A stretch of DNA of 64,000 nucleotides from an uncultured Candidatus Saccharibacteria bacterium (GCA_964605735.1 CAZSDS010000001.1:480126-544125); one strand, 5' to 3'. Positions 162-63,637 are shown, counted from the first letter of the stretch. Notes: a model not told the origin generated them from the sequence alone. Numbers and translations are program-made.

Positions 162-413
162 GCGGTTACTGCAACTTACAAATCGACGAATATTTTTGGT
201 TTAGGGGAAGTTAGGTTAAATTCCTACGCTGTGCCGCAACCGTGAATTCTTTACAAGAATCAAGCCGGGATACCTCAACCAAAATACGTGCAAGCTACTC
301 CCGAGCAGGAGCAGGCAGATTTTTTTTCGAAAATATTCCACTTGAAAAAATCAACCTTCCCCTGCTTTGAGCGGGAGAAGGTTTTTTCTTTCCAGGAGGA
401 TGAAGTGAAGAAG

Positions 414-33613: not shown

Positions 33614-33645
33614 AAAAACACCCTTGATGGGTGTTTTTAGTTTTT
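33614..33645. terminator. bidirectional intrinsic terminator
   Basis: Hairpin aacaccc-ttgat-gggtgtt followed by TTTAGTTTTT, with an A-run upstream. Confidence 0.5.
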
Positions 33646-33646
33646 C

Positions 33647-35014
33647 TCATACTACATCTTCTGCTTTAGACTCTTGCAGAACTTCAACCGCCGATTCTGT
33701 TTCTGTTTTCTCAGGTTCTTCAATTTCCTGTTCAGTATCTTCATTAATCGGTTCCGATTCCTTAAACTCTGACTCCCTAACCGCTTCTTCTAATTCTTCA
33801 ACTTCTTCTGTTTCTGCTTTTTCTTCTGGTTCTTCTTCAGCTTCGCCAAAAAGCGTATAAGTCGACGACCCTCCATTGCTTAATCCCGGAGTAGGATTGC
33901 TGGTGATTACCCAATTGCCGCTGCCATCAGGAACCTGTGCGTATGTTTGGCCTCGTTTTGTTTGGCCGCAAGTCTCATCTGCATCGCAAACGCCTGGGTC
34001 AGGATATTCATACGAATCCACCAGAATATCAGAATTAAACAAACGTATTACATCTTCCTTGTTATTAATCTGAAAACCTTTTGAATTACAACCCGGAGAA
34101 CCTTTGGCGTAAACTGCCAGGAAACCATTTGGCGGAATGACAGTACTGCCCGTATTGGTCAAACAACCCCTGATCTCGATATAATGACTTCCTTGATTAT
34201 CCTTGCTGTCTCTGATCTTCCAGCCCTCAACGTCTACCGAATCCGTTTCAGATGGATTATAAAGTTCAACCCATTCTGAACCAGGCATATGGCTCTCATT
34301 CTCCGGCCATGGCATAAACTCATTGATGATAATATCCCCGGAAGACGGATTAGGATGTGAACCGCTGGATATGAAATTACCCAATTCTTCAACGTGGCTA
34401 AATCCGCTCTGCTTGTTAGGCAAATTAATCTGCCAACCAACAAATTCCAAATCAAACCTGCACTCCTCATTTAATGCTTCTTCCCCCGCGGAAAGCGGCA
34501 ATGTCAGGCTGAAAACCCAGTTTTCTGGTTCGCTAAAAACAAAAGGTCCCACATCAAACTTATCCAAACGCCCCCTAAACACCATGTCGTCATCACGATA
34601 CGCCCTCAATTCCAGTACGTCACAAAGATCTGACGAAGAAAAATTATTAGCCTCAACTTTATATTTGAAATCCAAGTTCCCCGTATTTACCATCCGAACA
34701 TTTCTGGACGAACCATCCCCTGGCGTAATCCCTGAAGGTTCAAATCCGGTTTCAGAAATAATATCAAAGGACAAGCGTCCAGAATTTATTTCTGAACGCA
34801 TGGAAGTGGCAGAATCAGAAAAGTACGCGAGTGTGGACCTGACAAATGGGAAACAAGCGGTTACCAGAACGACAAACATTAAATTAAGGACAGCAATTTT
34901 TCTGTAAGGAATTGCTCTTTGTATTTTTTTAATTCCGGAAGATTTTTGTTTCAGGCCGAATGCTGAATCAAAACTCTTTGGTACGTTTAGGGGTTTGTTA
35001 ATCCTGTTATTCAT
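33647..35014 (-). CDS. SipW-cognate-type secreted protein with C-terminal lamin-tail domain (LTD) and acidic tail
   Basis: N-terminal TM, then AYFSDSATS (TasA/SipW-cognate cleavage-region motif). IIINEFMPWPENES...SEWVELYNPSETDSVDVEGWKIRD...GFLAVYA matches the LTD consensus. Overlaps sipW by 8 nt. Confidence 0.75.
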   Translation of the reverse strand: MNNRINKPLNVPKSFDSAFGLKQKSSGIKKIQRAIPYRKIAVLNLMFVVLVTACFPFVRSTLAYFSDSATSMRSEINSGRLSFDIISETGFEPSGITPGDGSSRNVRMVNTGNLDFKYKVEANNFSSSDLCDVLELRAYRDDDMVFRGRLDKFDVGPFVFSEPENWVFSLTLPLSAGEEALNEECRFDLEFVGWQINLPNKQSGFSHVEELGNFISSGSHPNPSSGDIIINEFMPWPENESHMPGSEWVELYNPSETDSVDVEGWKIRDSKDNQGSHYIEIRGCLTNTGSTVIPPNGFLAVYAKGSPGCNSKGFQINNKEDVIRLFNSDILVDSYEYPDPGVCDADETCGQTKRGQTYAQVPDGSGNWVITSNPTPGLSNGGSSTYTLFGEAEEEPEEKAETEEVEELEEAVRESEFKESEPINEDTEQEIEEPEKTETESAVEVLQESKAEDVV

Positions 35015-35525
35015 TGTTTTCTGCCTTTCGCCTATTCCGGATCTTCTTTATTTCATCCCAAATAACGGATAATTCCTCAATTATCAAAAGCACGGCCGGC
35101 AAAATTATCAGGATTGTGAATCCGACTGGCTGTTTTGCAAAGTCAATAATGTATCCTACATGCGGCACGGTGAGAAAAACTTTGCCGATAATCTCATTTT
35201 GCACGACTTCATTTTGATCATCCGAATCATTTGCATCACCTTTAGTGGTGAAGGTCTCATTCGTATTTTTCCGAATTATCCTGTGAGTGGTCGGGACTGA
35301 ATTGGCTTTGCCAAAAGTTATTATATCTCCAGCGGTGTATGAAGCCTGTTGTTTGACAAATACTAAACTCCCCGTCATGACGGCTGGTTCCATGGAACCG
35401 GACTCAACCACATACGCCTTAAAGTTTCCAAAGACAGGGAATGCGGTCAGCAATAACAAGAACCCGATTGCTGAAAGCAGCAAGGTTAGAAATATTGTTG
35501 CGGTTTTTGTTGCCAGTTTTTTCAA
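35007..35525 (-). CDS. sipW: signal peptidase I, SipW (archaeal/ER-type S26B)
   Basis: N-terminal TM. SGSMEP catalytic Ser motif and downstream His region (TTHRIIRK) are typical of SipW-type peptidases. C-terminal TM. Confidence 0.85.
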   Translation of the reverse strand: MKKLATKTATIFLTLLLSAIGFLLLLTAFPVFGNFKAYVVESGSMEPAVMTGSLVFVKQQASYTAGDIITFGKANSVPTTHRIIRKNTNETFTTKGDANDSDDQNEVVQNEIIGKVFLTVPHVGYIIDFAKQPVGFTILIILPAVLLIIEELSVIWDEIKKIRNRRKAENNE

Positions 35526-35589
35526 AGGGGTTGAAGTTAGTTAACCTTATTAGCCGCCTGAAAAAAATTTCCGGCGGCTTAAAGATGAG

Positions 35590-36375
35590 CTAAGGAACGA
35601 TCTGATAGTCTAAATTACCACGTAGCCAGTTATTGTGCCCATGGTTTGGTCCAACATAACCCGGAGTTGACGTTAGGAAACTATCAAGCGCTGCGTCATT
35701 GGTTTGGGTAGCGTCAACAGTTAAACTCAAGCTTAAACTCTGATTTTGATATAAGTTACCAGCTTCTTCTGCCATACCTAATCTGAAACTGAATTTGTAT
35801 GCATATCCTGGATTCAAAGCGCCTGATAGATTATTCCCCACACCAATATTCCAAATGTTCATTCTGGTATTCCAAGTATCCAAGCTGATTTTTCCAAAAT
35901 CATATGATGTAGCGCTAACAGGCCACCTTCCGCTTCCAATACCATCAGTAATAAACTGATCAACTACTGGTCCATCCGGAGCTGGGTCAGGATATCCAAA
36001 ATCCGGTTGTGCCCAGCTACCGCCATCAGGTGTTAAAAAAGCCATCTTAGCATCTTTGATGTAAATGGCTTTTTCCATACCTTCATCCCCCATAACATTA
36101 AAATGTCCAAACCAAGCCAGAGGCATTGCACCGTCATTCTTGACTATCACATCGACCCAATCTGTTGAGTCACCAGGAGCCAAAACCAAATTATCAGCTA
36201 AGGTCCATTCAAAAGACTCTGCTGAATCATTTTCATTCACATCCAAACTTAAAGTACCTGATGACAAAGTGCTTGTAGCACTTGTTGTAGTGTCAGTGAA
36301 AAACGCACCAGTGGCAGCAGTAACCGCAACCGCAATGATCACAATCATGCTGACACTCATTAATATTCTTTTCAT
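35590..36375 (-). CDS. TasA/camelysin (peptidase M73)-family SipW-cognate protein
   Basis: Signal region ending ...ATGAFFTDTTTS (AFFTD motif typical of TasA/CalY). Size and composition fit the family. Confidence 0.8.
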   Translation of the reverse strand: MKRILMSVSMIVIIAVAVTAATGAFFTDTTTSATSTLSSGTLSLDVNENDSAESFEWTLADNLVLAPGDSTDWVDVIVKNDGAMPLAWFGHFNVMGDEGMEKAIYIKDAKMAFLTPDGGSWAQPDFGYPDPAPDGPVVDQFITDGIGSGRWPVSATSYDFGKISLDTWNTRMNIWNIGVGNNLSGALNPGYAYKFSFRLGMAEEAGNLYQNQSLSLSLTVDATQTNDAALDSFLTSTPGYVGPNHGHNNWLRGNLDYQIVP

Positions 36376-36728: not shown

Positions 36729-38342
36729 TTAAATAGTCTTAAGCCAATTTCCGTTCATGATGGAAAAATCAACAGTGTTAACTAAACCATCCTTGTTCAG
36801 ATCAGCAACCGGGTCTGAAGTCAGCCATTTGGAATTCATAATAGACCAATCAATGCTATTAACAATCCGGTCACTATTTAGATCACCCAACAAACCCGGA
36901 GGTGGAGGGGGCGGACCACTGGAATTTGCAAACTCATATGCTCCCACGTCATAGGCACTGCCCTGCGGCCTTGCCACGCCATCCTTGTCTGTCTGCACTG
37001 AACTGACAAATACCCCGGCATCTAAAGCCAGCGAACCACTGGCCAAATGATAATTGTAGGCAGGCATATTCACGAAATCAGATCCGGAAGCAAGCCTGCT
37101 TGATGAAGAATTTTTTGCGATAGCAGGCATAGAGGTTCCATACACCAACAAATTGCTGATGAACACAGGGTTGGTCTGGGCTGTCCCTGCCTGGTGGAAC
37201 GGAACGGTAATGCCGGAACCAAAAGTGTTGTTAAACAGGCGCAAATTGTTGATGTTGTCTTCGTACCTCACTGCAGTTGAGGCATTGTAAATCAGGTTGT
37301 TGTAAGCAATCACTTCTGCTCCCCCATTTGATCCGGGTCCCCGCAAACGCAAGGCAATCTCAGAATCATAGATTTCATTGCCTTCCACAATGGCAGAAAT
37401 ATTTTCTTTCAAATTCAGCGCGGCCATGTTGCTTATCAACCCGTTACGGTATCCGTTAAAAACATTGTTCCTAATGTGCAAAGTTCCTCGAGGCGCAGTC
37501 CCGCTGATTTTGGTATCAATGGCATTCTCACCCGGCACCATCCCGGCTGAATAGCCGTTCTGGGCGGACGGAAGCGGCCCCAGCCAAAAATGGGAATTCT
37601 CCACTACAACATTTCTCCAGCCATTGGCGTTTCGGCCCGGGTCAATTTGCAGGGCATCGCCGGAGAAACTGTGAATTTCAGTGTTCCTGATAATTAAGCC
37701 GTCAGTAAAACTGCCTCCAGCCGCTATTCCATGAGCATCCGCTCTGCCAACTGCAGGATCCCAATAAAGGCAATGGTGAATCAAACTGTTTTCGATCAAA
37801 ACATTGTCCGGCCCGCTCATGTCCATGCAGTCCCGGCCTGCCCGCCTCAACTCACTGTTTAAAAACTTGAAAAAGTTGCCACCGGAGGTAACCCTTGCCG
37901 CGTCAGCCGCGGAGTACTGCGCGTCAAACGTCAAACCATCCACCACTAAGTGCTCGTGGCTGATGGACAGCACCTGTCCGGATTTGGTAATGAGGACAGA
38001 ACCGCGGCCCTGTTCAGAACGGACTGTAATCGGGGCCTGGGCAGTGCCGGAGCGGACACTTGTTAAAGTTTCGTTGTACGTCCCGGGAAGAATAATTAGA
38101 GTGTCTCCCGGCTGGAGCGCACCAACACCTTTTGCCAGGGTCTTATATGGGGAGTTCTTTGTTCCGGAGTTCGCGTCATTCCCGGATGAAGAAACGTAGA
38201 AAGTTGTTGCTGCACGGGACACGTTAAAGTTAATGTTAGAACGCTGGGCAACAAGGAAAGCCAGGACAAGGCAAAACGCCAAGCCAAAAGTCCATAATAT
38301 AACCCAGAGCACATCTACTTTGTGTTTCTTGCTTTGTGACAT
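36729..38342 (-). CDS. right-handed parallel beta-helix (pectate-lyase-fold) protein with C-terminal dockerin-like module
   Basis: N-terminal TM/signal. Multiple NxxxN-type beta-helix repeats (IRNNVFNGYRNGLISN...). C-terminal DLNSDRIVNSIDWSIMNSKW and DLNKDGLVNTVDFSIMNGNW are dockerin type I-like repeats. Confidence 0.8.
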   Translation of the reverse strand: MSQSKKHKVDVLWVILWTFGLAFCLVLAFLVAQRSNINFNVSRAATTFYVSSSGNDANSGTKNSPYKTLAKGVGALQPGDTLIILPGTYNETLTSVRSGTAQAPITVRSEQGRGSVLITKSGQVLSISHEHLVVDGLTFDAQYSAADAARVTSGGNFFKFLNSELRRAGRDCMDMSGPDNVLIENSLIHHCLYWDPAVGRADAHGIAAGGSFTDGLIIRNTEIHSFSGDALQIDPGRNANGWRNVVVENSHFWLGPLPSAQNGYSAGMVPGENAIDTKISGTAPRGTLHIRNNVFNGYRNGLISNMAALNLKENISAIVEGNEIYDSEIALRLRGPGSNGGAEVIAYNNLIYNASTAVRYEDNINNLRLFNNTFGSGITVPFHQAGTAQTNPVFISNLLVYGTSMPAIAKNSSSSRLASGSDFVNMPAYNYHLASGSLALDAGVFVSSVQTDKDGVARPQGSAYDVGAYEFANSSGPPPPPPGLLGDLNSDRIVNSIDWSIMNSKWLTSDPVADLNKDGLVNTVDFSIMNGNWLKTI

Positions 38343-41960: not shown

Positions 41961-44411
41961 TTACTTGGTAACTGTGAATACAGAACTTACTGTAAAACTC
42001 CCATCAAGATTTACTAATTGAATTTTATATTGGCCTGGTTTTACTTGAGTATCTGCTCCACCCTCAAAACTACCATTTGAATCTACAAGTTGAGCCGTCC
42101 AATATAACTGTTTAGCAGTGCTGCCAGCATATACTTGCTTCGTGCTTATATATCCCGTAAAACCGCTATTATCTGCAGGGATAAGCATCAAGTTTATTTC
42201 GCCTAACGTTGGACCGTCCCATTTAAGTAAATTGTTACCACCTTGCTTCATTGTCGTAGGGACAACAAAATTCGTAGCTTTAATGCCTGAAACATTATCG
42301 AATTTTATACTGCTTACCATTTTTAATATAGCATCTCTATCTGTTGTATTATTCCATACCACTTCTATACGCCCACAAGAAATACTAAAACTTGAATCGC
42401 ATTTAGTCCATGCAGATACTGTATCCGTAATGTAATATCTTTTCATTCCTAAGCTTCCAGAAGTCCAAGTCCTTACAGTTGCGTTTTTACCACCGACTTT
42501 TTCAGTTGATGTCGTAGGAGTTACATTTGGATTGTTTTTGAAATCAAACCCGCCTTTAGGGACTATAGCCATATAGTTTCCGTAATCAGAGGAATCTCTA
42601 CTCCATAAGTATCTGCCAGTTTGGCTTTCTAAAGCCCAATTTTTTGGTATTGATACCTGATAATGGTCATCAGTATTTATGAAAGGTATAGCATCCGAAG
42701 TGCCGCTTGTGGAATTAGAACTTTGAGGATTCCTGAAATCCAAAGGCTTTTTATACATATCACTTATATCACTGGAGGTAAGAGTTGCTTGATATTCTGC
42801 ATCTAGTCCTTTAATTTCCCAAATACCTAAATCTAAGCTTGATGCAATCAAATAAACTAAGGTATCTCCGTCCAGATCTGCAGCAACTGCCTTCATATCT
42901 GGAATATAACTATCTACTTTTTCAAGATTACTGGCGTGATATTTACTTGGTAAGCTCTGAAGAGCTTTAAATATGCGGTCTTGTCCAGCCACAGTAGAAT
43001 CGTCTGTTTTTCTATTCCAAGCAGGGTCATCAATCATAGTTAATTCAACCCTGGCCTTACCAGCCTTTTCAATATATAAAAACAATTTATCCAGATGACC
43101 TTCTAACCGCCCTTTGCACCAAATATCGTTAGGGTCATTTATGAAATCCAATAATTCTGTTGACAGTAATCCATCCTCATCTTTCAGAACAGCATAAGTG
43201 TATCCTTCCCCGCCTAATTGTGCCAGTCCAGTATTTTTGGTATCTAATACCTCTACAATCTCGAATTTCATATCTGAACGGACATAATTCACGTTATAGT
43301 ATTTATCTTTATAACGATGTGCCCCAACTGAATCAATATCACTTATACAAGACAAGTATCGATTAATTTCTTGAGCTCTTGGTGCATTCGAAGCGACTAA
43401 GTTATCTTGTTCATAAGCCATCGGTATACCAAGTGTTATAATTTTGCCGACATTAGGGTCATTCTTTTGAACTTGGTCTTTTGTTCCGCTATTAACAACA
43501 AAATAAATCGGCCATCCAACCAGTAACACTAAACCTATCCCGATAACAATTGAGGTATATTTCCAAATTTTCTTTTTTCGAATTTGTTCTGGAGTAAGCT
43601 CAGGTGCTGCTGGGACTGGAATTGATTGGCTAGGATTATTCGGGTCAACCATCATCGTAGGTGCAACAATCATTTGTTGTTTCAACAAGCCCCTAAAGTA
43701 AGCGTAGACTAAGGCAACTGGCCCCAAGAAAGGTAAGATAAAAAAGAATGGAAGGAAAAGTATAAATAAATTGAACGCTGCAATTTGAGAAGAGAAAGAA
43801 CCCGAAGTAAATGAAAGTGAAGTAAGTATTCTAAACAGCTCGACAACTACGACAAACAAACCCGTCCAAACTACTAATAAAGAACGGCTCCATTTTTTCC
43901 AGAAATAAAACAGTATCAAAAGCGAAATAACAAAATCTGTGAACGACAAAATTTTAGTTACCAAAGCTTGTCCTAGAAAAACTCTACTTAATATGCCATT
44001 AGCAATGTAATAAACCAAATAAGCATTCCCGATAGTAACCAAAATTAAAACGATTATCTTTTCAATACTTTCTAGTAATCTAGGCTTCGGTTGATTTATT
44101 TCGATTGGTTCTGGATTTTTTCTATATTTTATATAGTAAGCAATACATCCAATTATATAACCATATATAAGCTGCCCCAATAAAGGAGTTAAAAACAATG
44201 TTAACAATCCACCCTTCTTAAACAAAAGAGCGGCTCCTACGCCGCTCCAAAAGAAACCCCCAACAAAAGCTTGGACAATTATACTTGAAACTATATTACC
44301 TTTAGGTAGAACCGCTGCTAAAGAAAACCCAACTATCATTAAGATAATTGCAGTTGCAAAAGCCCAAGCTATCCTGTGTTTGGTTGGCTTAAAGGCTTGT
44401 TTTATTGTCAT
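41961..44411 (-). CDS. large polytopic membrane protein (816 aa) with C-terminal extracytoplasmic domain; hypothetical
   Basis: About 10 N-terminal TM helices, then a ~500-aa soluble region. No recognised domain. Confidence 0.7.
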   Translation of the reverse strand: MTIKQAFKPTKHRIAWAFATAIILMIVGFSLAAVLPKGNIVSSIIVQAFVGGFFWSGVGAALLFKKGGLLTLFLTPLLGQLIYGYIIGCIAYYIKYRKNPEPIEINQPKPRLLESIEKIIVLILVTIGNAYLVYYIANGILSRVFLGQALVTKILSFTDFVISLLILFYFWKKWSRSLLVVWTGLFVVVVELFRILTSLSFTSGSFSSQIAAFNLFILFLPFFFILPFLGPVALVYAYFRGLLKQQMIVAPTMMVDPNNPSQSIPVPAAPELTPEQIRKKKIWKYTSIVIGIGLVLLVGWPIYFVVNSGTKDQVQKNDPNVGKIITLGIPMAYEQDNLVASNAPRAQEINRYLSCISDIDSVGAHRYKDKYYNVNYVRSDMKFEIVEVLDTKNTGLAQLGGEGYTYAVLKDEDGLLSTELLDFINDPNDIWCKGRLEGHLDKLFLYIEKAGKARVELTMIDDPAWNRKTDDSTVAGQDRIFKALQSLPSKYHASNLEKVDSYIPDMKAVAADLDGDTLVYLIASSLDLGIWEIKGLDAEYQATLTSSDISDMYKKPLDFRNPQSSNSTSGTSDAIPFINTDDHYQVSIPKNWALESQTGRYLWSRDSSDYGNYMAIVPKGGFDFKNNPNVTPTTSTEKVGGKNATVRTWTSGSLGMKRYYITDTVSAWTKCDSSFSISCGRIEVVWNNTTDRDAILKMVSSIKFDNVSGIKATNFVVPTTMKQGGNNLLKWDGPTLGEINLMLIPADNSGFTGYISTKQVYAGSTAKQLYWTAQLVDSNGSFEGGADTQVKPGQYKIQLVNLDGSFTVSSVFTVTK

Positions 44412-44650
44412 TTTGTTTCATTGTAATTTAATGATGCCTTTTGCTCATTCTAGCGGAAAACTGAGCAGAACGCTAGTTGGAACTAACCGAGAAAACTTTT
44501 GAGTTAGCTACTTACGCCACAAAGTATTTATTACTACCAAAGGTAAAGAAGGGTTAGAACTCAAGAAAGAAATTCTATTGGCTTTAGGTCCAACCCCAAT
44601 AGTAATAAACAAAGAACCAACCATTGAACCGAATGAATGGTTTGTTCCTA

Positions 44651-44845
44651 TCATACTCCATATCTGACCCCACTATCACTGTTCCCTATGAAGTTGACCT
44701 CGTTACCCTCTTTCAATTCACCATCCATATATGTTCCTGGATCAATAATACTAGACCAGTCCCGGAAAGTCGTATCACTCCAAAGCACTTCCCACACTTT
44801 TTCTCTAGAAGCGTTTATTTCAATAGAATGTTGCATTTTATTCAT
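44651..44845 (-). pseudogene. truncated paralogue of the SRPBCC gene at 38459..38923 (first ~64 codons only)
   Basis: Translation MNKMQHSIEINASREKVWEVLWSDTTFRDWS...NFIGNSDSGVRYGV is ~75% identical to the N-terminus of the full gene. Nucleotide identity includes 14-15-mers. The reading frame ends with a stop where the full gene continues. Confidence 0.6.
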
Positions 44846-44861
44846 ACACTAATGATACACT

Positions 44862-45494
44862 TTAGAATAGATTGTCCGCTACGGATCTCAACCATGCTTT
44901 CGAGTACTCAACATCCTGCCTGGTCAACCCATGTCCTGCAGCTATTTTTTTAACTTCAGCGTCAGCTCCTTTAGCAGTCAATGCTTTGGTTAACTTATCC
45001 GTGTCTTCAGACCCTACCATTTCATCCATTAGTCCTGACAATATTAAAACTTTTGTTTGAGTCAACGGTGGCATTTTTTTGGACAAAGCCTCAGACATGG
45101 GCCTGAAAAGAATACCCATTTTCAAAACCTCTGGTTTGTCAGTCATCAAATGAAGAGCAATATTGGCTCCATTGGAATAACCTACGGCAACAAGGCCGTT
45201 TAGGCTAAACCCGTAAGTTTTTGAACTTTCGACGATAAAATTTGCAAGCTCGTTTGAACGTTTCTCTAAATCCTTAAAATCAAATACACCTGGTGACAGC
45301 CTTTTGAAAAACCTTGGCATGCCATCTTCTATAACTTGCCCTCGCGGACTGAGGATGTTAGCACTAAAATCTAAGTCCTCACCCAATGGGACCAAGTCAT
45401 GTTCGTTTCCACCCGTGCCGTGCAGCAACAATAAAGTCAGTGGACTTTTTTTATCTATATAGATATGTTCGAAACCTTGAATCGCTTTATTCAT
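44862..45494 (-). CDS. phospholipase/carboxylesterase-family alpha/beta hydrolase
   Basis: LLLLHGTGGNEHDL and GYSNGANIALHLM (GxSxG) are typical of PF02230-like esterases. Confidence 0.8.
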   Translation of the reverse strand: MNKAIQGFEHIYIDKKSPLTLLLLHGTGGNEHDLVPLGEDLDFSANILSPRGQVIEDGMPRFFKRLSPGVFDFKDLEKRSNELANFIVESSKTYGFSLNGLVAVGYSNGANIALHLMTDKPEVLKMGILFRPMSEALSKKMPPLTQTKVLILSGLMDEMVGSEDTDKLTKALTAKGADAEVKKIAAGHGLTRQDVEYSKAWLRSVADNLF

Positions 45495-46440
45495 TTTTAG
45501 GCAATATCAATTTAGGCAAAACTTTTTCTATTTCACTACGATGCGGTTCATACAGTGGTGTTAGGCTTAAGGATGTGCCTAGTTTTTCTTCCGGCTCGTC
45601 TATGGTGAACCCTGGACCATCTGTAGCTATTTCGAACAACACTCCACCCGGTTCATGAAAATAAATTGATTGAAAATATGTTCTGTCTATGATCGGTGAA
45701 ACGTTTGCTCCAATGCCGGATAATTTTTTGTGCCATTGCTCTTGCACCGTACCATCCTTAACCCGAAAAGCCACATGGTGGATAATTCCTGTGCCCATGC
45801 TGCCGGGAAAAAAATCAGGAGCCTCTCTAACATCTATGAAAGTACCCAAACCACTTTCCGGCAAAGAATACCTGTAGGTATTTTCGGTTTGCCCTAGCAG
45901 TTGATACCCCATCATTTCACGAAGAAACTTGTCCGTATCCTCAAAGCCATCTTCTAATAAAGTAACCGAATAAAAACCTCGGATAGCGTGCTCTGTTGGG
46001 ACGCCGTAACCGGCAAAAACTTTTTTATTCACGGTTTTATTGTCAGCCACAAGTTCAAGCAATATATCATCCGGGTCCCTAAAACTTATATAGTTATCAA
46101 TAAACCTGGTACCCTTATTTTTTTCAAATGGGATACCCTTAGCAGTAAGTCGCCCGATCCAAAATTCCATTGAGCTCTCGGGAATTGAGAAGGAAATAGT
46201 AAATGCCTGGTTAACACCCTTTTGACCTTTCCTGCCACCTTCCCAAGCAAAAAAAGTTAAAGCCGTGCCAGGAGAGCCCACTGAATCACCAAAATACAAA
46301 TGATAAGTGCCAGGATCATCCTGGTTTACAGACAATTTTACAAACTTCAAGCCTAAAACCTGTGTGTAGAAGTCTATATTACGTTGCGCGTTATTTGTTA
46401 TGGCTGTTATATGATGCAAACCTAAAATTGTGTCTTTCAT
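45487..46440 (-). CDS. two-domain VOC-family ring-cleaving dioxygenase-like protein (MhqO/YfiE-like)
   Basis: LGLHHITAITNNAQRNIDFYTQVLGLKFVK plus a second VOC module (HHVAFRV...). Glyoxalase/extradiol-dioxygenase fold. Confidence 0.75.
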   Translation of the reverse strand: MKDTILGLHHITAITNNAQRNIDFYTQVLGLKFVKLSVNQDDPGTYHLYFGDSVGSPGTALTFFAWEGGRKGQKGVNQAFTISFSIPESSMEFWIGRLTAKGIPFEKNKGTRFIDNYISFRDPDDILLELVADNKTVNKKVFAGYGVPTEHAIRGFYSVTLLEDGFEDTDKFLREMMGYQLLGQTENTYRYSLPESGLGTFIDVREAPDFFPGSMGTGIIHHVAFRVKDGTVQEQWHKKLSGIGANVSPIIDRTYFQSIYFHEPGGVLFEIATDGPGFTIDEPEEKLGTSLSLTPLYEPHRSEIEKVLPKLILPKNE

Positions 46441-46533
46441 ATACTCATGAGTATACCCCTGGTTTTAATAAAAATGAAGCAATATTTTTCTCTAAAATAA
46501 AAAAACGTCCGACCACAAGGGTCAGACATTTTT

Positions 46534-46612
46534 CTTTGGCTCAACATCGGTGGACAATGTTAGAGCTAATATCCAAAACAAGAACAGTATATTTATGTAC
46601 CTGACTTAAGTA
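46534..46612 (-). repeat. conserved 3'-UTR element, copy b
   Basis: See copy a. Followed, in the direction of transcription, by terminator hairpin gacc-acaag-ggtc plus a T/A run at ~46500-46535. Confidence 0.5.
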
Positions 46613-46615
46613 ATG

Positions 46616-46900
46616 TTAACCAAAGTATCCCGCACTAAACAGAGATAAAAATGCAAATATTGCTAATAAAACAACTATTGTCCAAAGCACATATCTTAGC
46701 AAGTTATTCTTACCAGTGTTTTGAATACCTGAAGAGAAAAATCCAATTATAGTAAGGGTTGGAATAAGCACAAAGGCTCCGAAAAATGCATAAGGCGAAA
46801 GTAATGAATGAACAATAAATTGAATTCGAGAACAAGTGCTAAGTACTAGAAGTCCATAAGTAGTTATTGGTGCATTTCCCTGAATAAGACGTAATTCCAA
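46616..46900 (-). CDS. small hydrophobic membrane protein; adjacent overlapping ORF 46839..47045 suggests a possible frameshifted single gene
   Basis: Two overlapping minus-strand ORFs, both hydrophobic, overlapping by ~60 nt in different frames. Confidence 0.35.
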   Translation of the reverse strand: MELRLIQGNAPITTYGLLVLSTCSRIQFIVHSLLSPYAFFGAFVLIPTLTIIGFFSSGIQNTGKNNLLRYVLWTIVVLLAIFAFLSLFSAGYFG

Positions 46901-47107
46901 TTACAACACATACAACTAACAATAGGACAAGATATGTCATAAAACCTTTTACAAAACCATCAAATAACCTGTTTTCTGAAGATGGTTTCTGGGAAACTGG
47001 ATTGTCTATGTTTGTTTCCATATATTTTTTCTTTAGCGTAAGCATATCACAGGCATAATTCTAGCGTCCACACACTTGAACAAAAAACACCAATAAACAT
47101 TGGTGTC

Positions 47108-47169
47108 CTTTGTTGGCTCCGAATCGTGGACGATATTAGAACGTACTATATGCAAATAGGTAGTGCGTC
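47108..47169 (-). repeat. conserved 3'-UTR element, copy c
   Basis: See copy a. Followed by the perfect hairpin caccaat-aaac-attggtg with an A-run and T-rich flank at ~47047-47100. Confidence 0.5.
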
Positions 47170-48477
47170 TTATTCTGGAATGCTTTGATCTTGTGAAGGA
47201 ATATCCTCCCATTCTCCTTTATCATTTTTTCTCCTATTCATAACTTCGGGAGGAAAACGGGTCCACTTACCTTTCTTACCTCTAACCATTCGTTTTATTA
47301 CAATGTGTCTAGCTTGATCAGAATCAAGAATGTTATTAGGTTCTGGCGCACTTTTTGCCTGTCGTTCAAACTCCCGAATTTTATTCATAAGTTCTTCGGA
47401 TGCTTTTGTCTTTGGAGGAGGTCCATCATTCAATTTTCTTTGTCTCCAATCTTTTGCCATGTATTTGTCCCATAAACCACAAATCATGAATGAACCATCT
47501 TGCGGCGGAAACATAGCAAAACTTGAAACGCCTTTTGCTTTGGTCTCATCAGATAACGCATTGTAATGTTGATCTAATGCTTTAAGGTCAGCTTTAAGAT
47601 CAGGGCCAGCAATGAAGGTTTGATCATCACGGACAAAATACGGGGCAACCTGCTGATGTAATTTATCACTCGAAGTAAATACCTTGCAGAATGGCAAGTA
47701 ATAAAGATAGGCCATGTCAATTTTATGGCTCTGTCGACCTCTTCCAATCAAATCAGAGGCAATGGCAAGATAAAAAAACATATCAACCGACAAAACATAA
47801 GCAAAGTAAGGCGCAAACTTTCTAATGGGTGGCGTTCCTAAATTTTTCCAGCGTTCTAATACAAGTTTTTGAGAATGAAAAGGAATACCAATTAGCCACA
47901 TTCCAAATACCAGCATGTGTTCTTTATTTGGTCCATCAATAAGTCCATCAGTTAAAGACTTAATCTCGCTTAAATTTTTAGGTTTGCCGGAGTTAAAAAA
48001 TTGCTGAAATAAAAGATATTTATCTTCAAGATTGATATTGGATAAAGCCGCTCGCCATCCTTTTGCGTGCAAGCGCTCAATTTCCATAAAATCTCCATCT
48101 TGCCATCTTTCAAAGGCTTCTTCCTCGGGCGACTGCTCAAACATAATTCCATAGCCTTCCTCTGTTTCTACATGCTTGCCACCACCGATTATTGGTCGAC
48201 CACTCATTTCAACATTCCCTTGGCCGGTCAATTCTCCGGCCAAAAGTGTCTGATGATGGACACCCGGCCGCGCACTCATATCAGGAGTTTTGTAAGCAAG
48301 GCTTCCTACAACTTCTTCTGGTTTTCGTCCAGACTTAATTTCTTTTTCCAGATCAGCAAGGGTCTCAATGAAAAATAATGGAGTAATGTTGCTATTGAAA
48401 AAATTATCAAGCCACATTGCTTCGTCAGGATTCAAACTTTGAAGAAATGATTTATCAAAAATTAGACTTGGACCCAT
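47170..48477 (-). CDS. hypothetical protein (435 aa), third gene of a tightly coupled three-gene operon
   Basis: Start is 1 nt after the upstream gene's stop. No recognisable motifs. Low-GC composition. Confidence 0.6.
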   Translation of the reverse strand: MGPSLIFDKSFLQSLNPDEAMWLDNFFNSNITPLFFIETLADLEKEIKSGRKPEEVVGSLAYKTPDMSARPGVHHQTLLAGELTGQGNVEMSGRPIIGGGKHVETEEGYGIMFEQSPEEEAFERWQDGDFMEIERLHAKGWRAALSNINLEDKYLLFQQFFNSGKPKNLSEIKSLTDGLIDGPNKEHMLVFGMWLIGIPFHSQKLVLERWKNLGTPPIRKFAPYFAYVLSVDMFFYLAIASDLIGRGRQSHKIDMAYLYYLPFCKVFTSSDKLHQQVAPYFVRDDQTFIAGPDLKADLKALDQHYNALSDETKAKGVSSFAMFPPQDGSFMICGLWDKYMAKDWRQRKLNDGPPPKTKASEELMNKIREFERQAKSAPEPNNILDSDQARHIVIKRMVRGKKGKWTRFPPEVMNRRKNDKGEWEDIPSQDQSIPE

Positions 48478-48478
48478 A

Positions 48479-49228
48479 TCACGGGATCTCCTTTTGCAGA
48501 TATCTGCTTAAAATACGTTTTCCATGTTCTTCCGGAATATGTATAACTCGCAATTCCCCGGATTCACTAATTGCTGCCTCTATGACCCACGGACGCATGG
48601 AAGAAGTTAACGGAGATATTACAAAGATGTAAAGCATTCCGCTAATTAGGAAATTATATCCAATAACGCCGGATTCCATTCTGATTTTTTTAGGTTCTGA
48701 AATTAGCTCCTTGGGCAATGAAGCGTGTTTAGTATAACTGTTGATTATACAAGGAAAAAGATCACTTGGTCCGGGATCCTCTTCCACCAACATTTTACGA
48801 ACTACTTCTTCGTATTTTCCAAGTGATACTAAACCAAAGAATGGTCGTTTTGAAATACTTGCCCTCCATAGTATGGACAATAGAAACAGTTTGAACTTTT
48901 TGTAATCAATTCCAGTCGCAAATGTAAACTCTACTCCATGTTGATTCTTTTGATTCTCAAATCTGATATTGACGCCTTTTGGGAGTTTCCCACCGTAGAG
49001 AATAAGTCTTCCATAGGTTTCGAACTTACTTAATTTCGCCTCACAATCCCTGCAGAGAATCCCAGCTTCGAATTCGCCTGTATGAAGTTTCCTCTCCTTA
49101 TCCCAATCATCCGATTTGAATCTAATTAAGCTATGGTTTTCATCGAAAATATCAGAATACATAAAATCAGGAATGATATGGGACTTGTTAACTAATTGTT
49201 TATCGCAAAGACAAAGTTTACAAATCAT
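48479..49228 (-). CDS. HNH-like nuclease-motif protein (249 aa), second gene of the three-gene operon
   Basis: N-terminus CKLCLCDKQLVNKSHIIPDF...DENH...CRDCEAKL has a Cys pair, His, Asn/His and a second Cys pair arranged like an HNH/zinc-finger nuclease motif. Start overlaps the upstream gene stop by 4 nt. Confidence 0.55.
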   Translation of the reverse strand: MICKLCLCDKQLVNKSHIIPDFMYSDIFDENHSLIRFKSDDWDKERKLHTGEFEAGILCRDCEAKLSKFETYGRLILYGGKLPKGVNIRFENQKNQHGVEFTFATGIDYKKFKLFLLSILWRASISKRPFFGLVSLGKYEEVVRKMLVEEDPGPSDLFPCIINSYTKHASLPKELISEPKKIRMESGVIGYNFLISGMLYIFVISPLTSSMRPWVIEAAISESGELRVIHIPEEHGKRILSRYLQKEIP

Positions 49229-50844
49229 AATAATCGCTCCTGTTCTTCTGACATCGGGACTTGCAGATCGTCTTTGTAGAATTCCTTAAATTTTTTATCC
49301 AAGAAGTTCGGAGAGGGTTTTAGGTTATTCTCCTTAAACGCTTTTGATATTTCAGCAGATACTCCGGAAGCCGGATTTTGATTTGCCCTTTTTGCTACTT
49401 CGTCAATCTCGATATAGTCTTTGACGTAGTAGTAGTTTTCTAATTCTTCCACGGAAAATAAAGTATATTCAAAGTCTTTAATCCCTGGACATTTGCTATC
49501 CATGCCTTCTAAGGCTTTTTTGATATCTTCTTGGTAGATAGTGGTTGAAACAAGCGGGATATCATAGAAAATACCTACGCAAGTTAGCTTCTTTTTTTCA
49601 AAGCCTTTTAGTTCCGGATATTTGCCAACATCCGAACACCTATCATACATTTGTTTGATAGTTTTTGTTATTTTTTCAAAAACTTCTTTCCTAATTAAAT
49701 CAGGATCTCCTGTTTGCAATGTGCCTAATGGGAACTGATAACCTTTCGCTTCAAAGAGTAAAATATTTTCATCTTTATGAACTATCCAGTCAAAAAAAGT
49801 CTTCTTATCTTTTTTTGTGCCATAAGGGATACCACGCATAACAGCACTTTCTCCATACATGTCCTTCAATACCATCCCAACATACTCTTCAAACAATAAA
49901 CCGAAGTAATCACGGAATGTTTTTCCAATTGCATTTTCGAAGATCCAATACAAGCCCCTAAATGCGCCTTTAACATAAGCGCTAATGCTCGGTGCGATAT
50001 AATCATTTACGCCCAGTTTTACAATTGGTTTTTCCCATAATGGGTTATATCGATTCTTGGTGTATTCAGGTTGTAATTTTGCATTATATTTCTGATCGAG
50101 ATTGCGTAGTTCTTCTGGACTCCCAGCAAGCAGCGCTAAGATCGCATTTACTTTTTCGTCAGTAAGAACTTCGGCTAAACCTCCTTGGATAGTTGATCCG
50201 GTAAACTTACCCATATTGAATCTTGGCGAATTCATAATCGCCGCAAAAATAGCGAACGATAATTTAACGTATTCTTGTATGCTCATACCAAATTTTTCAA
50301 AAAGGATTTTGTCCAAATTGATTTGACTGTTTATGTTAATTTGGGCTGACTGAAAAATAAGCAACTGTCGCGTAAAAGCATCTTTGATATCTTGCTGACT
50401 ACTAAACTGCTGGTATGTCATAGGGACCAGTAAAGCTGCTATCCCTTTTTTGTTTATTGGTTGGACAAGGGTGCTGAAATAGATATTAAATAATGCTAAG
50501 ACATCATCCTTATTTTTTATGCTTAAACTTTTATGGTTATTGGAGCCAGAAATGAGTAATATATTGCTAATGTATTCAATTGCGAAATCAGTAAGAAATA
50601 AGCCGGTAAGTTTGTGGATTGCAAAGCCAACCTTTTCTTTTTTAATGGCAGAATTTTCATGAAAATTATTATCAAAAAGTTTGTTTGAAATATCCCCTAA
50701 AATTGATAGCGCCTCGTCCAGCTTGTACCCTTTCAAGGCATTACAAAACTCCTCCTGAGATACTGTCAGTTCGGGCTTGTTGCATAACGCTGATAGTCTT
50801 GGTTCAGCTTCCAGAATGTATTTACCTTGTTGATCCCTGAACAT
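49225..50844 (-). CDS. hypothetical protein (539 aa), first gene of the three-gene operon; C-terminal region contains a possible PD-(D/E)xK-like motif
   Basis: FDWIVHKDENILLFEAKGYQF has D...E-x-K spacing reminiscent of a restriction-endonuclease-fold core. No P-loop found. Very AT-rich relative to flanks. Confidence 0.55.
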   Translation of the reverse strand: MFRDQQGKYILEAEPRLSALCNKPELTVSQEEFCNALKGYKLDEALSILGDISNKLFDNNFHENSAIKKEKVGFAIHKLTGLFLTDFAIEYISNILLISGSNNHKSLSIKNKDDVLALFNIYFSTLVQPINKKGIAALLVPMTYQQFSSQQDIKDAFTRQLLIFQSAQININSQINLDKILFEKFGMSIQEYVKLSFAIFAAIMNSPRFNMGKFTGSTIQGGLAEVLTDEKVNAILALLAGSPEELRNLDQKYNAKLQPEYTKNRYNPLWEKPIVKLGVNDYIAPSISAYVKGAFRGLYWIFENAIGKTFRDYFGLLFEEYVGMVLKDMYGESAVMRGIPYGTKKDKKTFFDWIVHKDENILLFEAKGYQFPLGTLQTGDPDLIRKEVFEKITKTIKQMYDRCSDVGKYPELKGFEKKKLTCVGIFYDIPLVSTTIYQEDIKKALEGMDSKCPGIKDFEYTLFSVEELENYYYVKDYIEIDEVAKRANQNPASGVSAEISKAFKENNLKPSPNFLDKKFKEFYKDDLQVPMSEEQERLL

Positions 50845-50944
50845 AAAATTAACGTTTATTCCTTATATTTTAGCATTTTGCAGCACTTAATTAAATCAGC
50901 TATAACTGTTATAATTTACTCACAATTCATAGTAGCCTAAACCG

Positions 50945-51080
50945 AACAGAAATGGTCGGCATGGCGAAAAAAGTCCCATGGAAGATACTGAACCCTACGT
51001 TCAGCGCTCTTCCATGGGCCATGCCGGGAAACTGGCATGGGGACCGCAAGGTCCCGGCTGGCGTGGGGCTTTGTGTTTTA
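50945..51080 (+). other. GC-rich structured element (two or more stable hairpins) upstream of a 48-codon membrane-peptide ORF
   Basis: Read directly: ccatggaaga...tcttccatgg (10-bp stem) and gggacc-gcaa-ggtccc hairpins. No ORF with a plausible start. Confidence 0.3.
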
Positions 51081-51104
51081 CGCCGGCAGAAAGGATAAAA
51101 ACCC

Positions 51105-51251
51105 ATGGATATCATTTGGGGAATCATAGTTCCGGTGTTGATAGGACTTATCGCTTACGGCCTCACCAAAGGCCTAAAATGGCTCGCTGGGCGATCAAAG
51201 ATCTTCAAAAAGGTAATTGATCTGGCTGAAAGACCGATTGGGAAAAAATAG
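51105..51251 (+). CDS. 48-aa hydrophobic peptide (single TM; holin/type-I-toxin-like)
   Basis: aaggataaaaaccc precedes the ATG. Translation MDIIWGIIVPVLIGLIAYGLTKGLKWLAGRSKIFKKVIDLAERPIGKK. Below the size cut-off of the ORF track. Confidence 0.35.
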   Translation: MDIIWGIIVPVLIGLIAYGLTKGLKWLAGRSKIFKKVIDLAERPIGKK

Positions 51252-51453
51252 GTGCACATCCGTTCATCTTGACGGCAAAAAGATAAACATTTACGATTAA
51301 TCTAACAATTGAAAAAGTCTTGTTTAGTTATTAGGAATTGATTGCTGTCAGCAATCGGGACAAAAGCCCTTACCCAATGACTACGTTCAAAAATGACTCA
51401 ACTGGTATAACAGTTGGCTAAACAAGTATCTTGAATAAAGATCGGCACAAAAG

Positions 51454-51510
51454 CCCATAAATTTGAGAATTACAATTTGTAATTCTGAGGTTTATGGGTT
51501 TTTTGGTTTT
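51454..51510 (+). terminator. 45-bp imperfect palindrome followed by TTTTTTGGTTTTTT (strong terminator, or candidate recombinase att/operator site)
   Basis: cccataaatttgagaattacaa|tttgtaattctgaggtttatggg then a T-run. Confidence 0.45.
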
Positions 51511-51524
51511 TTAACCTAAAATTT

Positions 51525-51818
51525 ATGCCCGGAGAAACATCAAAACTTAATGGAATGAAAGGTGGCCGGCCAAGCGGTAGCAAGGCAGCTCACACTCTTG
51601 AAGCGCAGACTCTTAGGCAATATCTAATAAGCCGAACGATTGAAGAGCATAAGCCCTTAGTTGAGGCTTTGATCCGGAAAGCAAAACGCGGAGATTTGGG
51701 TTCAATTAAAGAGGTTTTCGAAAGGGTGCTGGGCAAGGAGAAAGATCCAACCACACCGAAGATTATTGTCCAAACGCTTCAAAGAAGCATAGAGGAAGAC
51801 AGAGAAAAATACGCTTAA
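51525..51818 (+). CDS. hypothetical basic protein (97 aa) within the integrated element
   Basis: ORF. No SD, and it starts directly after the terminator-like palindrome. Confidence 0.4.
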   Translation: MPGETSKLNGMKGGRPSGSKAAHTLEAQTLRQYLISRTIEEHKPLVEALIRKAKRGDLGSIKEVFERVLGKEKDPTTPKIIVQTLQRSIEEDREKYA

Positions 51819-52310
51819 TTATATTCCCGAGGCACAAAAGTCCGTTATGGACTGGGTAGAACCAACGCCTCGGGACTACTCAGCCCTTAATGGATTTTTA
51901 TGTTATTGACCGAAGAAGCATTAAAAGAATTTGAAGAAATTTGGCATAAAGAAAACCCTGATCGCCTAATTTCTCCGGAAGAACTCTCAGTACTTGCTGA
52001 ACGAGTTTTGAATGCTTTTAAGGTTATTCTGTCGAAATAATGACTATACAGGTTTGATGCGATATTCGCGCTAAACCTGTGGAGTTATTCCATAGTCGCA
52101 AGGGGCATACATGTAGTGCTGCAAAGACGACTTAAAAGATCTTGGCAAAGATTTACATGCTTCCGTATCCGCCACCTCGATATACTGTCTTCACATCAGA
52201 ACCTCAATGGAAACCTCATGCGCGAGCGCATAGGAAACATTAGGGGAAGAACAGGTAGAGAGGGAGAGGAAGGGAAGGGGTTGGGGTTAAGAGTTAATCC
52301 GGGGAGCGCT

Positions 52311-52484
52311 ATGTCGACAAATTTACAAAAGAGAGAAACGAAGCAAATTAGAATAGAAATCGGACTTCATCGTTCACTTAAAATAGCATCGGCTCAAAAC
52401 GGCAAAACAATGTCCAAGCTGCTTGATGAAATCTGTGAACAGTATTTTAAGCATGAAAACCTTAAACATGATAAAATTAAATAA
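52311..52484 (+). CDS. ribbon-helix-helix (Arc/MetJ/CopG-like) DNA-binding protein
   Basis: Internal Met start preceded by a purine/G-rich tract. KQIRIEIGLHRSLKIASAQNGKTMSKLLDEICEQYF is an RHH beta-strand plus two helices pattern. The ORF-track entry 52116..52484 probably over-extends it. Confidence 0.55.
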   Translation: MSTNLQKRETKQIRIEIGLHRSLKIASAQNGKTMSKLLDEICEQYFKHENLKHDKIK

Positions 52485-52494
52485 ATAAAGACCC

Positions 52495-54251
<1,757 letters not shown>

Positions 54252-54261
<10 letters not shown>

Positions 54262-54494
54262 ACAATTGATTTCAAAAACTCTTTGCCGTATCCACTCTTG
54301 AGCCGTTTTTCATGAATACGGGCCTCGGCTCTGGTTTTATACACTTCTGTATAAAACAAGGTCCAGGGTCTATATCCTTTCGTTGAAAAAACTTGGCCTA
54401 GGTTATGTTCTCGCAATCTACGACCTACATTGGTAGTCATACCAACATAAATTCTTCCATGTGCTTCGCTTTTTAGAGCATAGACTATGTACAT
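54252..54494 (-). CDS. GIY-YIG nuclease-superfamily small protein (80 aa)
   Basis: MYIVYALKSEAHGRIYVGMTTNVGRRLREHN is the GIY-YIG motif. Stop is 1 nt from the tRNA-Asn 5' end. A TATAAT box lies 9 nt upstream of the ATG. Confidence 0.8.
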
Positions 54495-63130: not shown

Positions 63131-63522
63131 AAATTTTTGTTAATGGATTTTAATCATAAATCTAGTATTTGAGATCGTCAATCCCTAGCTTGTGGACAAA
63201 AAAGACCGCGCACGGCGCAGTCTAGCATAGGCCACATAAACAATGCCTACTAACCACAGAACCACACCGAGTATTGCACCCCACCTTGCACCACGAATTG
63301 CATCTGGGTTAGTGTCGTCTCACATAACACCTCCTTAATTTTGGTGATATTCAGGGGTAGCAAAAAGCCAAGCATTAGTCAACGCTTGGCTGGAAGCAGA
63401 TATATGTCTAAAAATGTCCGAATTGGATGGCGAGCAGTTCGTCCAATGAGGACGTTGTGAGTTCCACGTCCGAATGGACGACTGCGAGCCTCTAATACAA
63501 GCATTTTTAGGCAAATTAAAAA

Positions 63523-63637
63523 CCCCGCACTGCCTACTTTCCCATCAGTCTTACACTGAAGTATCATGAGCGGTCTTGCGTTTCACTTCTGAGTTCGGGA
63601 TGGGATCAGGTGGTGCCACAAGCCTTGAAGCACGGGG
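63523..63637 (-). rRNA. rrf: 5S ribosomal RNA
   Basis: Reverse complement contains CCACCTGATCCCATCCCGAACTCAGAAGTGAAACGC, matching the universal bacterial 5S loop B/C region. Terminal helix CCCCGTGC/GCAGTGCGGGG pairs. Followed by a T-run. Confidence 0.8.

Follow-up and report, generated by a model that had tools for sequence, protein, structure and literature searches.

Three successive genes on the minus strand of a 64,000-nucleotide stretch of bacterial DNA (GCA_964605735.1 CAZSDS010000001.1:480126-544125; hereafter the window, in whose own numbering all positions are given) probably direct the building of an extracellular fibre of the TasA type, whose subunits would depend on the signal peptidase SipW, polymerise by donor-strand exchange and be joined by a minor subunit bearing a lamin-tail domain (LTD). 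The three open reading frames (ORFs) run in the same direction and encode a TasA-like protein, the candidate major fibre subunit (35590-36375, 261 aa), SipW, a signal peptidase I of the endoplasmic reticulum (ER)/archaeal type (35007-35525, 172 aa), and an accessory protein with an LTD (33647-35014, 455 aa). The stop of sipW and the start of the accessory gene share 8 nt (ATGAATAA). A sequence-only reading of the window had described this set as a TasA/camelysin-like protein with an AFFTD-type signal, a SipW-type peptidase with an SGSMEP motif and a second SipW-cognate protein ending in an LTD and an acidic tail, with an 8-nt overlap between the last two genes, and in all these respects its description was borne out. 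Within the 64-kb window, a hydrophobic stretch followed by a SipW-cognate motif occurs only in the TasA-like and LTD proteins, plus one low-complexity ORF antisense to the LTD gene. With the motif so restricted, and with the gene order repeated in dozens of independent metagenome contigs, the three-gene arrangement exceeds chance.

The TasA-like protein carries GAFFTD at residues 23-28, behind a hydrophobic segment, and its residues 1-24 (36304-36375, minus strand) are predicted from the sequence, the alignment and a motif scan to form a SipW-type signal peptide. Mature Bacillus subtilis TasA begins at residue 28 (PMC10151520), and on this basis cleavage of the window protein would fall at TGA/FFTD (the slash marks the cut) or one residue earlier. 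The following residues 25-45 (FFTDTTTSATSTLSSGTLSLD; 36241-36303, minus strand) make up a predicted N-terminal donor strand, placed by alignment to residues 6-53 of the structure 8aur, adjoining the TasA donor strand (PMC9674648). In an AlphaFold2 (AF2) monomer this predicted strand is modelled with low confidence and is unpacked. A word-indexed search returned seven homologues at 33-41% identity that could be aligned over the full length, and a profile of this seven-member family matches the B. subtilis TasA structures, both the fibre (8aur_A, E 5.5e-6) and the monomer (5of1_A, E 3.9e-5). The matches comprise two collinear segments: GTLxL...PGD...NxG, which lies just after the donor strand, and a C-terminal NxYQG...F..ATQ. 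Profile positions 31-81 align to TasA chain residues 6-53 and positions 190-225 to residues 187-221. Because these two collinear segments match 8aur and 5of1, the window protein is, on the profile evidence, a remote yet genuine member of the TasA family, not a TasA orthologue. The Pfam model Peptidase_M73 (PF12389) gives a marginal match, 22.8 bits against a gathering score of 22.5, and is confined to residues 2-71. The gene starts with ATG and has a Shine-Dalgarno-like site, GAAAGG, 6-7 nt upstream; a public gene call uses the alternative start M10, which would give 252 aa instead of 261 aa and makes 36349-36375 ambiguous. The closest relative is encoded on a 983-kb Candidatus Woesebacteria chromosome, and all ten genome loci that encode this family have an adjacent SipW (the Woesebacteria chromosome, Chloroflexi and several Clostridia). 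The window's major subunit falls in a subfamily common to Woesebacteria, Chloroflexi and Clostridia; the TasA-like genes of most LTD-type loci match it over the first 50-100 residues only.

SipW scores 105.9 bits against TIGR02228, the model for archaeal-type signal peptidase I, with a cut-off of 51.85. The SGSMEP motif occupies residues 42-47, and S44 within it, H81 (in THR), D97 (in GDAN) and D103 are invariant in 57 SipW homologues aligned from related loci. In line with other ER-type peptidases, we take these to be the catalytic Ser, His and Asp residues. The protein has transmembrane segments at its N- and C-termini. TTG is the sole possible start codon, with no Shine-Dalgarno sequence within 15 nt, and the interval 35526-35555 is therefore ambiguous. 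In the window sipW adjoins the genes for its presumed cognate substrates, and fusions with substrates exist in relatives. From the sequences, SipW would be expected to cleave both neighbouring proteins next to their A-(F/Y)-F-(T/S)-D motif.

The accessory protein can be divided into four parts. Residues 1-63 (34826-35014, minus strand) consist of a Lys/Arg-rich, presumably cytoplasmic n-region of about 39 aa and a hydrophobic segment leading to STLA/YFSD, an assignment drawn from the sequence, the conservation of the motif and the fusions described below. There follow a donor-strand-like N-terminus (residues 64-82) and a TasA-related beta-sandwich, here called the N-domain (residues 83-222), which together span 34349-34825. 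The LTD covers residues 223-385 (33860-34348), as defined by PF00932, conserved motifs and the AF2 model, and the acidic, low-complexity C-terminal tail (33650-33859) is predicted to be disordered from its composition and from its predicted local distance difference test (pLDDT) scores. TLAYFSD lies at residues 61-67 and is predicted to be cut at TLA/YFSD; among 63 relatives the motif is conserved at T61 (55/63), A63 (51/63), Y64 (49/63), F65 (55/63) and D67 (59/63). In the N-domain C131 and C185 are invariant, and an FxxxFxGWQ motif stands at its end. The LTD model PF00932 scores 65.1 bits against a gathering score of 34.3 over residues 223-338, so that it and the ER-type peptidase model both exceed their cut-offs, and the motifs NEF..P, GEWVE.YN and PTPG..N are conserved. 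The last 75 residues, after N380, are 40% D/E; across the family the tails have a median length of 149 aa and contain 28% D/E, 26% P/T/S and 1.5% K/R. The window tail has no transmembrane segment, and inspection by eye revealed no sorting or cell-wall-binding motif in it. AF2, run with a 63-sequence alignment, models the N-domain with a pLDDT of 88-98 per 10-residue block (residues 81-220) and the LTD (residues 225-385) as a beta-sandwich of mostly high confidence with two weak blocks, and leaves the tail disordered, with pLDDT below 50 at residues 390-445 and 449-455.

Two comparisons indicate that the LTD protein is related to TasA in its N-terminal half. In hhalign its N-terminus matches the TasA-like family with 92% probability over 60 columns, which run from the cleavage region through the presumed donor strand into the first strands, and when the two window proteins are compared from their predicted mature ends onwards they agree at 10 of 22 positions without gaps (FFTDTTTSATSTLSSGTLSLDV and YFSDSATSMRSEINSGRLSFDI). 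Peptidase_M73 scores 21.1 bits against the accessory protein, just short of the 22.5 threshold, and a profile of the accessory family found no significant relative in the PDB. Residues 61-83 are the best-conserved stretch of the family and are left unpacked by AF2 (pLDDT 53-71); as modelled, this fits an intermolecular role for the stretch.

Word-indexed searches returned seven to nine homologues and gave the impression of a rare family; this was an artefact of their sensitivity and was overturned by an exhaustive HMMER search. With a profile of the accessory protein lacking the tail, 20,991 proteins were matched at E <= 1e-3 and 1,073 at E <= 1e-30. The N-domain and the LTD are both present in 112 of the 149 best cluster representatives (clusters at 50% identity), and the usual motif is T-(L/F/V)-A-Y-F-N-D. 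We also scanned metagenome contigs with the 63-sequence alignment and obtained 80 loci, 66 of them with an N-domain+LTD ORF and 52 of these with enough upstream sequence to be assessed. sipW stands directly upstream on the same strand in 49 of the 52, mostly with overlapping reading frames, and is fused to the accessory gene in one more, so that the two adjoin or are fused in 50/52. One to three TasA-like genes precede sipW in 34 of the 38 loci that extend more than 900 nt beyond it. On these counts the unit of TasA-like gene, sipW and accessory gene is strongly conserved, and its architecture is that of a large family, not a one-off. Many of the related contigs come, judged by their names, from groundwater 0.1-um fractions; together with the Woesebacteria relative, this makes it likely that the window, too, derives from the Patescibacteria.

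The fusions take several forms. One joins SipW to the N-domain and LTD (L059:297-2465), another joins SipW to the signal, LTD and acidic tail (P0014, L017:4465-6084), and two join SipW to an LTD (L082:5260-6762 and L085:2-1603); in the Woesebacteria genome (L001:10791-11846) SipW is followed by a second transmembrane segment, SSSYFTD and a Pro/Thr-rich tail. A Lys/Arg-rich loop and a third transmembrane segment in the fusions correspond to the long n-region and hydrophobic segment of the accessory protein, and the membrane topology is therefore consistent, with the cleavage site outside. Fusions of this kind imply, as far as sequence can tell, either self-processing or a fixed pairing of enzyme and substrate. 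Furthermore, 44 related loci carry another conserved gene, the fourth, behind the accessory gene (for example L042:7480-8703, L003:2196-3257 and L026:7394-8617). Its product begins with a signal peptide and continues with a TasA-like domain (PGD...N.., NEYQN..F.L) and a Gly-rich linker; an FN3-like domain, matched in L003 by the Pfam model Pur_ac_phosph_N, and a C-terminal transmembrane segment with a basic tail complete it, and it could plausibly anchor the fibre in the membrane. No counterpart occurs in the window: the family hidden Markov model gives only weak matches there, to the two known TasA-related domains, and a terminator follows the accessory gene. A separate observation concerns contig L039, which holds two N-domain+LTD genes. 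One belongs to a full operon of TasA-like gene, sipW and accessory gene (L039:3332-7136, minus strand); the other, solitary copy (L039:512-1729) is on the opposite strand at the contig end, where the upstream sequence is too short to show sipW.

Between the TasA-like gene and sipW lie 64 nt that contain a stem-loop, AGCCGCC-N14-GGCGGCT (35552-35579, minus strand; 7+4 bp, dG -16.7 kcal/mol). The sequence-only reading had recognised the stem correctly and placed it at 35553-35584, which is not its position, and had proposed that it allows differential expression of the genes on either side. Comparison lends support to the proposal: a strong stem-loop occupies the same place in all 33 assessable related loci, with z scores, computed from mononucleotide shuffles, that are all below -2 (median -4.9, 26/33 below -4), against a median of -2.4 and 26% below -4 for 19 comparably long same-strand gaps elsewhere in these loci. 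The position is conserved among these loci, the sequence is not. Neither the window hairpin nor most of its counterparts is followed by a U-tract, and we have rejected its identity as a canonical intrinsic terminator. The observations fit a candidate attenuator, acting by partial termination, or a stabiliser of the 3' end of the major-subunit transcript, which in either case might fix how much subunit is made relative to peptidase. The surroundings of the start codons agree with this, with ATG and GAAAGG at the major gene, TTG without a Shine-Dalgarno sequence at sipW, and an accessory gene that is coupled to sipW and has an AAAGG site 10 nt upstream, inside sipW.

Based on these results we propose the following model. 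The TasA-like and accessory proteins would be exported by Sec and held in the membrane by their signal peptides until SipW, as a dedicated ER-type peptidase, cuts both near TGA/FFTD and TLA/YFSD. Cleavage would release the conserved N-terminal strand of each. The shaft would then grow as the strand of one TasA-like subunit is inserted into the beta-sandwich of the next. The accessory protein may join through its own donor strand, its TasA-related domain or both, as a low-copy starter or cap in the position of TapA, and it would display the LTD and polyanionic tail as a binding or spacing module, much like a two-domain tip adhesin. Stoichiometry could be set by the order of the genes, with the major gene and its ATG and Shine-Dalgarno-like site first, then a strong hairpin ahead of sipW, which has TTG and no Shine-Dalgarno sequence, and the accessory gene translationally coupled to sipW. 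That the accessory protein is specifically the initiator or tip subunit is a proposition on which we are evenly divided.

The closest known counterpart is the tapA-sipW-tasA operon of B. subtilis, a parallel already drawn from the sequence alone and one that the similar N-terminus, the gene overlap and the SipW-type signals sustain. The two share a TasA-family major subunit with a dedicated ER-type SipW, an accessory SipW substrate whose mature N-terminus resembles the donor strand of the major subunit (in the window, by prediction), an overlap of the accessory gene with sipW, and a major-subunit gene that stands apart from the low-abundance pair. TapA is likewise processed by SipW, has an N-terminus similar to TasA and, in the current view, provides the first donor strand (PMC9674648, PMC10151520); in B. 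subtilis its gene overlaps sipW, and both TapA and SipW are far scarcer than TasA (PMC10151520). The gene order differs, being tasA-like, sipW, accessory in the window and tapA, sipW, tasA in B. subtilis, and so do the hosts, probably a member of the Patescibacteria, or candidate phyla radiation (CPR), in one case and a Firmicute in the other. The accessory protein also shows no sequence similarity to TapA in Pfam, NCBIfam and PDB profile searches and has instead a TasA-related N-domain, an LTD and an acidic tail. Its SipW-type signal, donor-strand-like N-terminus and overlap with sipW are hallmarks of TapA, and they support the view that it works like TapA without belonging to that family.

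Other systems share parts of this logic. sipW is clustered with TasA/M73-family paralogues in Bacillus cereus (sipW-tasA-calY, calY encoding camelysin) and in Clostridium perfringens (sipW-bsaA-bsaB-bsaC), just as the window's relatives carry one to three TasA-like genes upstream of sipW; to our knowledge neither of these loci encodes an LTD-containing accessory protein. The window proteins match TIGR04090 (BsaA) and Peptidase_M73 weakly, and membership of the BsaA family is unsupported. In the archaeon Pyrobaculum calidifontis the pilin AbpA, a TasA homologue that assembles by donor-strand exchange, is encoded beside the multi-domain AbpB, whose N-terminus has been proposed to initiate assembly and whose distal beta-domains would act as an adhesin (PMC9245690). 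This pairing of a pilin with a multi-domain initiator and adhesin is what we propose for the N-domain+LTD protein, but the archaeal locus lacks a dedicated signal peptidase, the first domain of AbpB is TapA-like, not TasA-like, and there is no LTD or acidic tail (PMC9245690). The FimH-type tip adhesins of chaperone-usher pili belong to unrelated families with a different assembly route, whereas the window system is of the monoderm kind, using Sec and SipW and no chaperone or usher; structural matches to those adhesins reflect generic beta-sandwich similarity with a high root-mean-square deviation. With other bacterial PF00932 proteins the accessory protein shares GEWVE(L/I)YN and (S/Y)ARxPDG, motifs common to thousands of prokaryotic LTD proteins. 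Unlike them, it combines its LTD in one chain with a SipW-type signal, a TasA-related domain and a polyanionic tail, and its gene stays tightly linked to sipW.

Several results weigh against a TasA-type fibre. The equivalog models for the Bacillus proteins score below threshold, TasA itself (NF046066) at 14.4 bits with a cut-off of 450 and SipW (NF046067) at 115.7 bits with a cut-off of 190, so the window peptidase is, by its scores, SipW-like and not an equivalog of the Bacillus enzyme. TIGR04088, the model for SipW-dependent signals, does not match the TasA-like protein at E <= 0.1 and gives 12.9 against a cut-off of 19 for the accessory protein, which also remains below threshold for the BsaA family (TIGR04090, 18.2 bits, cut-off 60). 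Despite this, the hydrophobic stretch and T-x-A-(Y/F)-F-(S/T/N)-D are present and conserved, and it is on motif, alignment and synteny that we assign SipW-type signals to the two proteins flanking the peptidase gene. The AF2 model of the TasA-like protein, built on a seven-sequence alignment, is poor (pLDDT 62), and its Foldseek matches were meaningless and were discarded. Polymerisation by N-terminal donor-strand exchange is a prediction from sequence, and ligand binding by the acidic tail and LTD is conjectural. With the membrane-anchored fourth protein missing from the window, a fibre would need some other means of attachment to this cell. Finally, the control gaps also often fold well, and the window's own hairpin lies at the weak end of the range (z score -2.3 over 95 nt; most relatives have a stronger one) and has no U-tract.

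Some of these points would suit another arrangement, in which a camelysin-like protein and an LTD adhesin or binding protein are secreted or surface proteins that do not polymerise and merely share a peptidase, the three genes forming an export-and-maturation module. The Pfam family is indeed named after camelysin, a surface-associated protein, its match is marginal and confined to the N-terminus, the TasA-like protein has no confident fold model, and LTDs occur in many unrelated secreted multi-domain proteins, including giant multi-LTD proteins among the HMMER matches. We nevertheless consider such a module improbable: in both proteins conservation peaks at the N-terminal strand, which is nevertheless unpacked in the models, both ends of TasA are collinear with the family profile, and the conserved hairpin sets apart the presumed abundant component, as expected for a polymer with low-copy helpers. 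Many relatives, moreover, carry two or three TasA-like paralogues and a membrane-anchored TasA-like protein, which suggests assembly from several subunits. A two-dimensional sheath or S-layer-like coat, offered beside a fibre in the sequence-only reading, is very hard to credit. Subunits with strand-exchanging beta-sandwiches can in principle form sheets, and surface layers are frequent in ultra-small bacteria, but no similarity to S-layer or sheath proteins appeared in Pfam, NCBIfam and PDB searches, and among solved structures the linear TasA fibre is the one specific relative. It is the fibre half of that earlier proposal that we retain, on the strength of homology and architecture. The JGI source names of the homologues P0003, P0005 and P0007, 'predicted ribosomally synthesized peptide with SipW-like signal peptide', could be taken to indicate precursors of ribosomally synthesized and post-translationally modified peptides with a SipW-like leader. 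We rejected this idea, whose chances we put close to nil: the proteins have 240-260 aa and are conserved throughout, with TasA motifs at both ends, no modification enzymes lie within the operon, and the name mirrors the N-terminal signal model only.

If the fibre is real, the accessory protein need not be its initiator or tip. It might instead act as a matrix linker or anchor, placed along the fibre or at its base or held by an uncleaved signal anchor, with the LTD and acidic tail tying fibres to the envelope, cations, minerals or polysaccharide, or spacing them by charge repulsion. The unusually long Lys/Arg-rich n-region with its transmembrane segment, which is the segment joined covalently to SipW in the fusions, speaks for this role, as does the lack of a C-terminally anchored fourth protein in the window, where some other anchor would be needed; TapA, too, was first described in B. 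subtilis as an anchoring and assembly protein (PMC9674648, PMC9245690). On this sub-question we rate a linker or anchor as possible though somewhat unlikely, for the cleavage motif shows the same degree of conservation as that of the major subunit, which argues for release, the tail lacks the membrane-spanning or wall-binding features of an anchor, and relatives have a more obvious anchor in their separate membrane-anchored TasA-like protein.

The core of a TasA-family subunit and SipW is already known, and its presence in Patescibacteria has been noted as a Pfam census: TasA (PF12389) homologues have been reported in Patescibacteria and Chloroflexota (PMC9245690). In the literature searched, which mostly excluded subscription journals, we found no description of an accessory protein that combines a SipW signal, a TasA-related domain, an LTD and a polyanionic tail, and no paper linking SipW or TasA with a lamin-tail accessory, in line with the earlier impression that the combination is undescribed. 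The near-obligate coupling or fusion of this protein to sipW, the conserved intercistronic hairpin and the four-gene layout were likewise not found described. Searches combining SipW with lamin tail, camelysin with CPR and SipW with CPR returned nothing, TasA with lamin tail an unrelated match only, and SipW with Patescibacteria the Pfam census and an unrelated paper only. A CPR paper mentions an LTD protein merely as the neighbour of a CRISPR locus (PMC6509639).

Among the donor-strand-exchange polymers of monoderm bacteria, TasA fibres are understood best, and work on them has been confined essentially to Bacilli and, distantly, one archaeon. The loci described here constitute a related operon family with a different, undescribed accessory subunit, found in at least 112 clusters (50% identity) and on dozens of independent contigs. 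Three of its features, the tight coupling of SipW and substrate (fusions included), the hairpin and the anchored fourth protein of relatives, offer experimental handles on the initiation and dosage of a fibre that has neither chaperone nor usher. The operon would also give a defined structural context to bacterial lamin-tail domains, which are common and functionally obscure. If the hosts are ultra-small episymbionts, the fibre is a candidate for one of their poorly known surface structures that contact other cells. We also raise, as a speculation that we think unlikely, that LTD fibres are typical of CPR/Patescibacteria, expose at their end the LTD and long polyanionic tail of a low-copy subunit and serve episymbionts as an attachment or capture organelle for host surfaces, extracellular polymers or cations. 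SipW physically coupled to its substrate, and in some lineages fused with it, would then be a minimal platform free of chaperone and usher, with cleavage and hand-over into the growing fibre at one membrane site.

Directly 3' of the accessory gene lies an intrinsic-terminator-like hairpin (33614-33638, minus strand; dG about -14 kcal/mol) with a U-tract after the stem (UUUUUCUGUU), which would end the transcription unit. A second terminator-like site (36690-36661) stands 3' of the upstream beta-helix gene, and because these two sites delimit them the three genes look like one self-contained unit. A sigma-70 promoter scan of the 353 nt upstream of the TasA-like gene gave no convincing site, and candidate sites there were no commoner than in shuffled sequence. 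The flanking genes, for the beta-helix/dockerin protein, a DUF378 protein, a GT4 glycosyltransferase and a 154-aa protein, are not retained beside related operons and were therefore left out of the unit. The product of the upstream neighbour (36729-38342, minus strand) is a secreted protein whose right-handed beta-helix region resembles pectate lyases and chondroitinase B; it also has a choice-of-anchor Q domain and, at the C-terminus, a domain of the dockerin type. A further large candidate surface protein is encoded at 13671-17525 (minus strand); its 1284 aa show weak similarity to choice-of-anchor C and MARTX repeats.

The window as a whole is bacterial chromosome, as indicated by RpoD, DnaG, PBP1A and a 5S rRNA gene; the last (63522-63637, minus strand) is near the window end, and the remainder of the rRNA operon may lie just beyond. 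A cobalamin riboswitch aptamer (180-297, plus strand) scores just over threshold (34.4 against 31.5 bits) upstream of ORFs at 288-773 and 814-2475, the second of which is weakly similar to an SCO2321-family membrane protein and to squalene cyclase. The stretch 42000-54300 has a GC content of 37-40%, against about 45-48% in most of the remaining window, and is probably an integrated mobile element or defence island. It contains an 816-aa protein without NCBIfam match (41961-44411), a GapS1-like antiphage protein (49225-50844, minus strand) and a large serine recombinase (52495-54228, plus strand) that abuts and overlaps a tRNA gene (54190-54261, minus strand). In the same stretch, just downstream of the start of the GapS1-like gene and on the opposite strand, is a full-length match to the Rfam LOOT RNA (RF03000; 50934-51055, plus strand), with 96 bits against a gathering score of 46.

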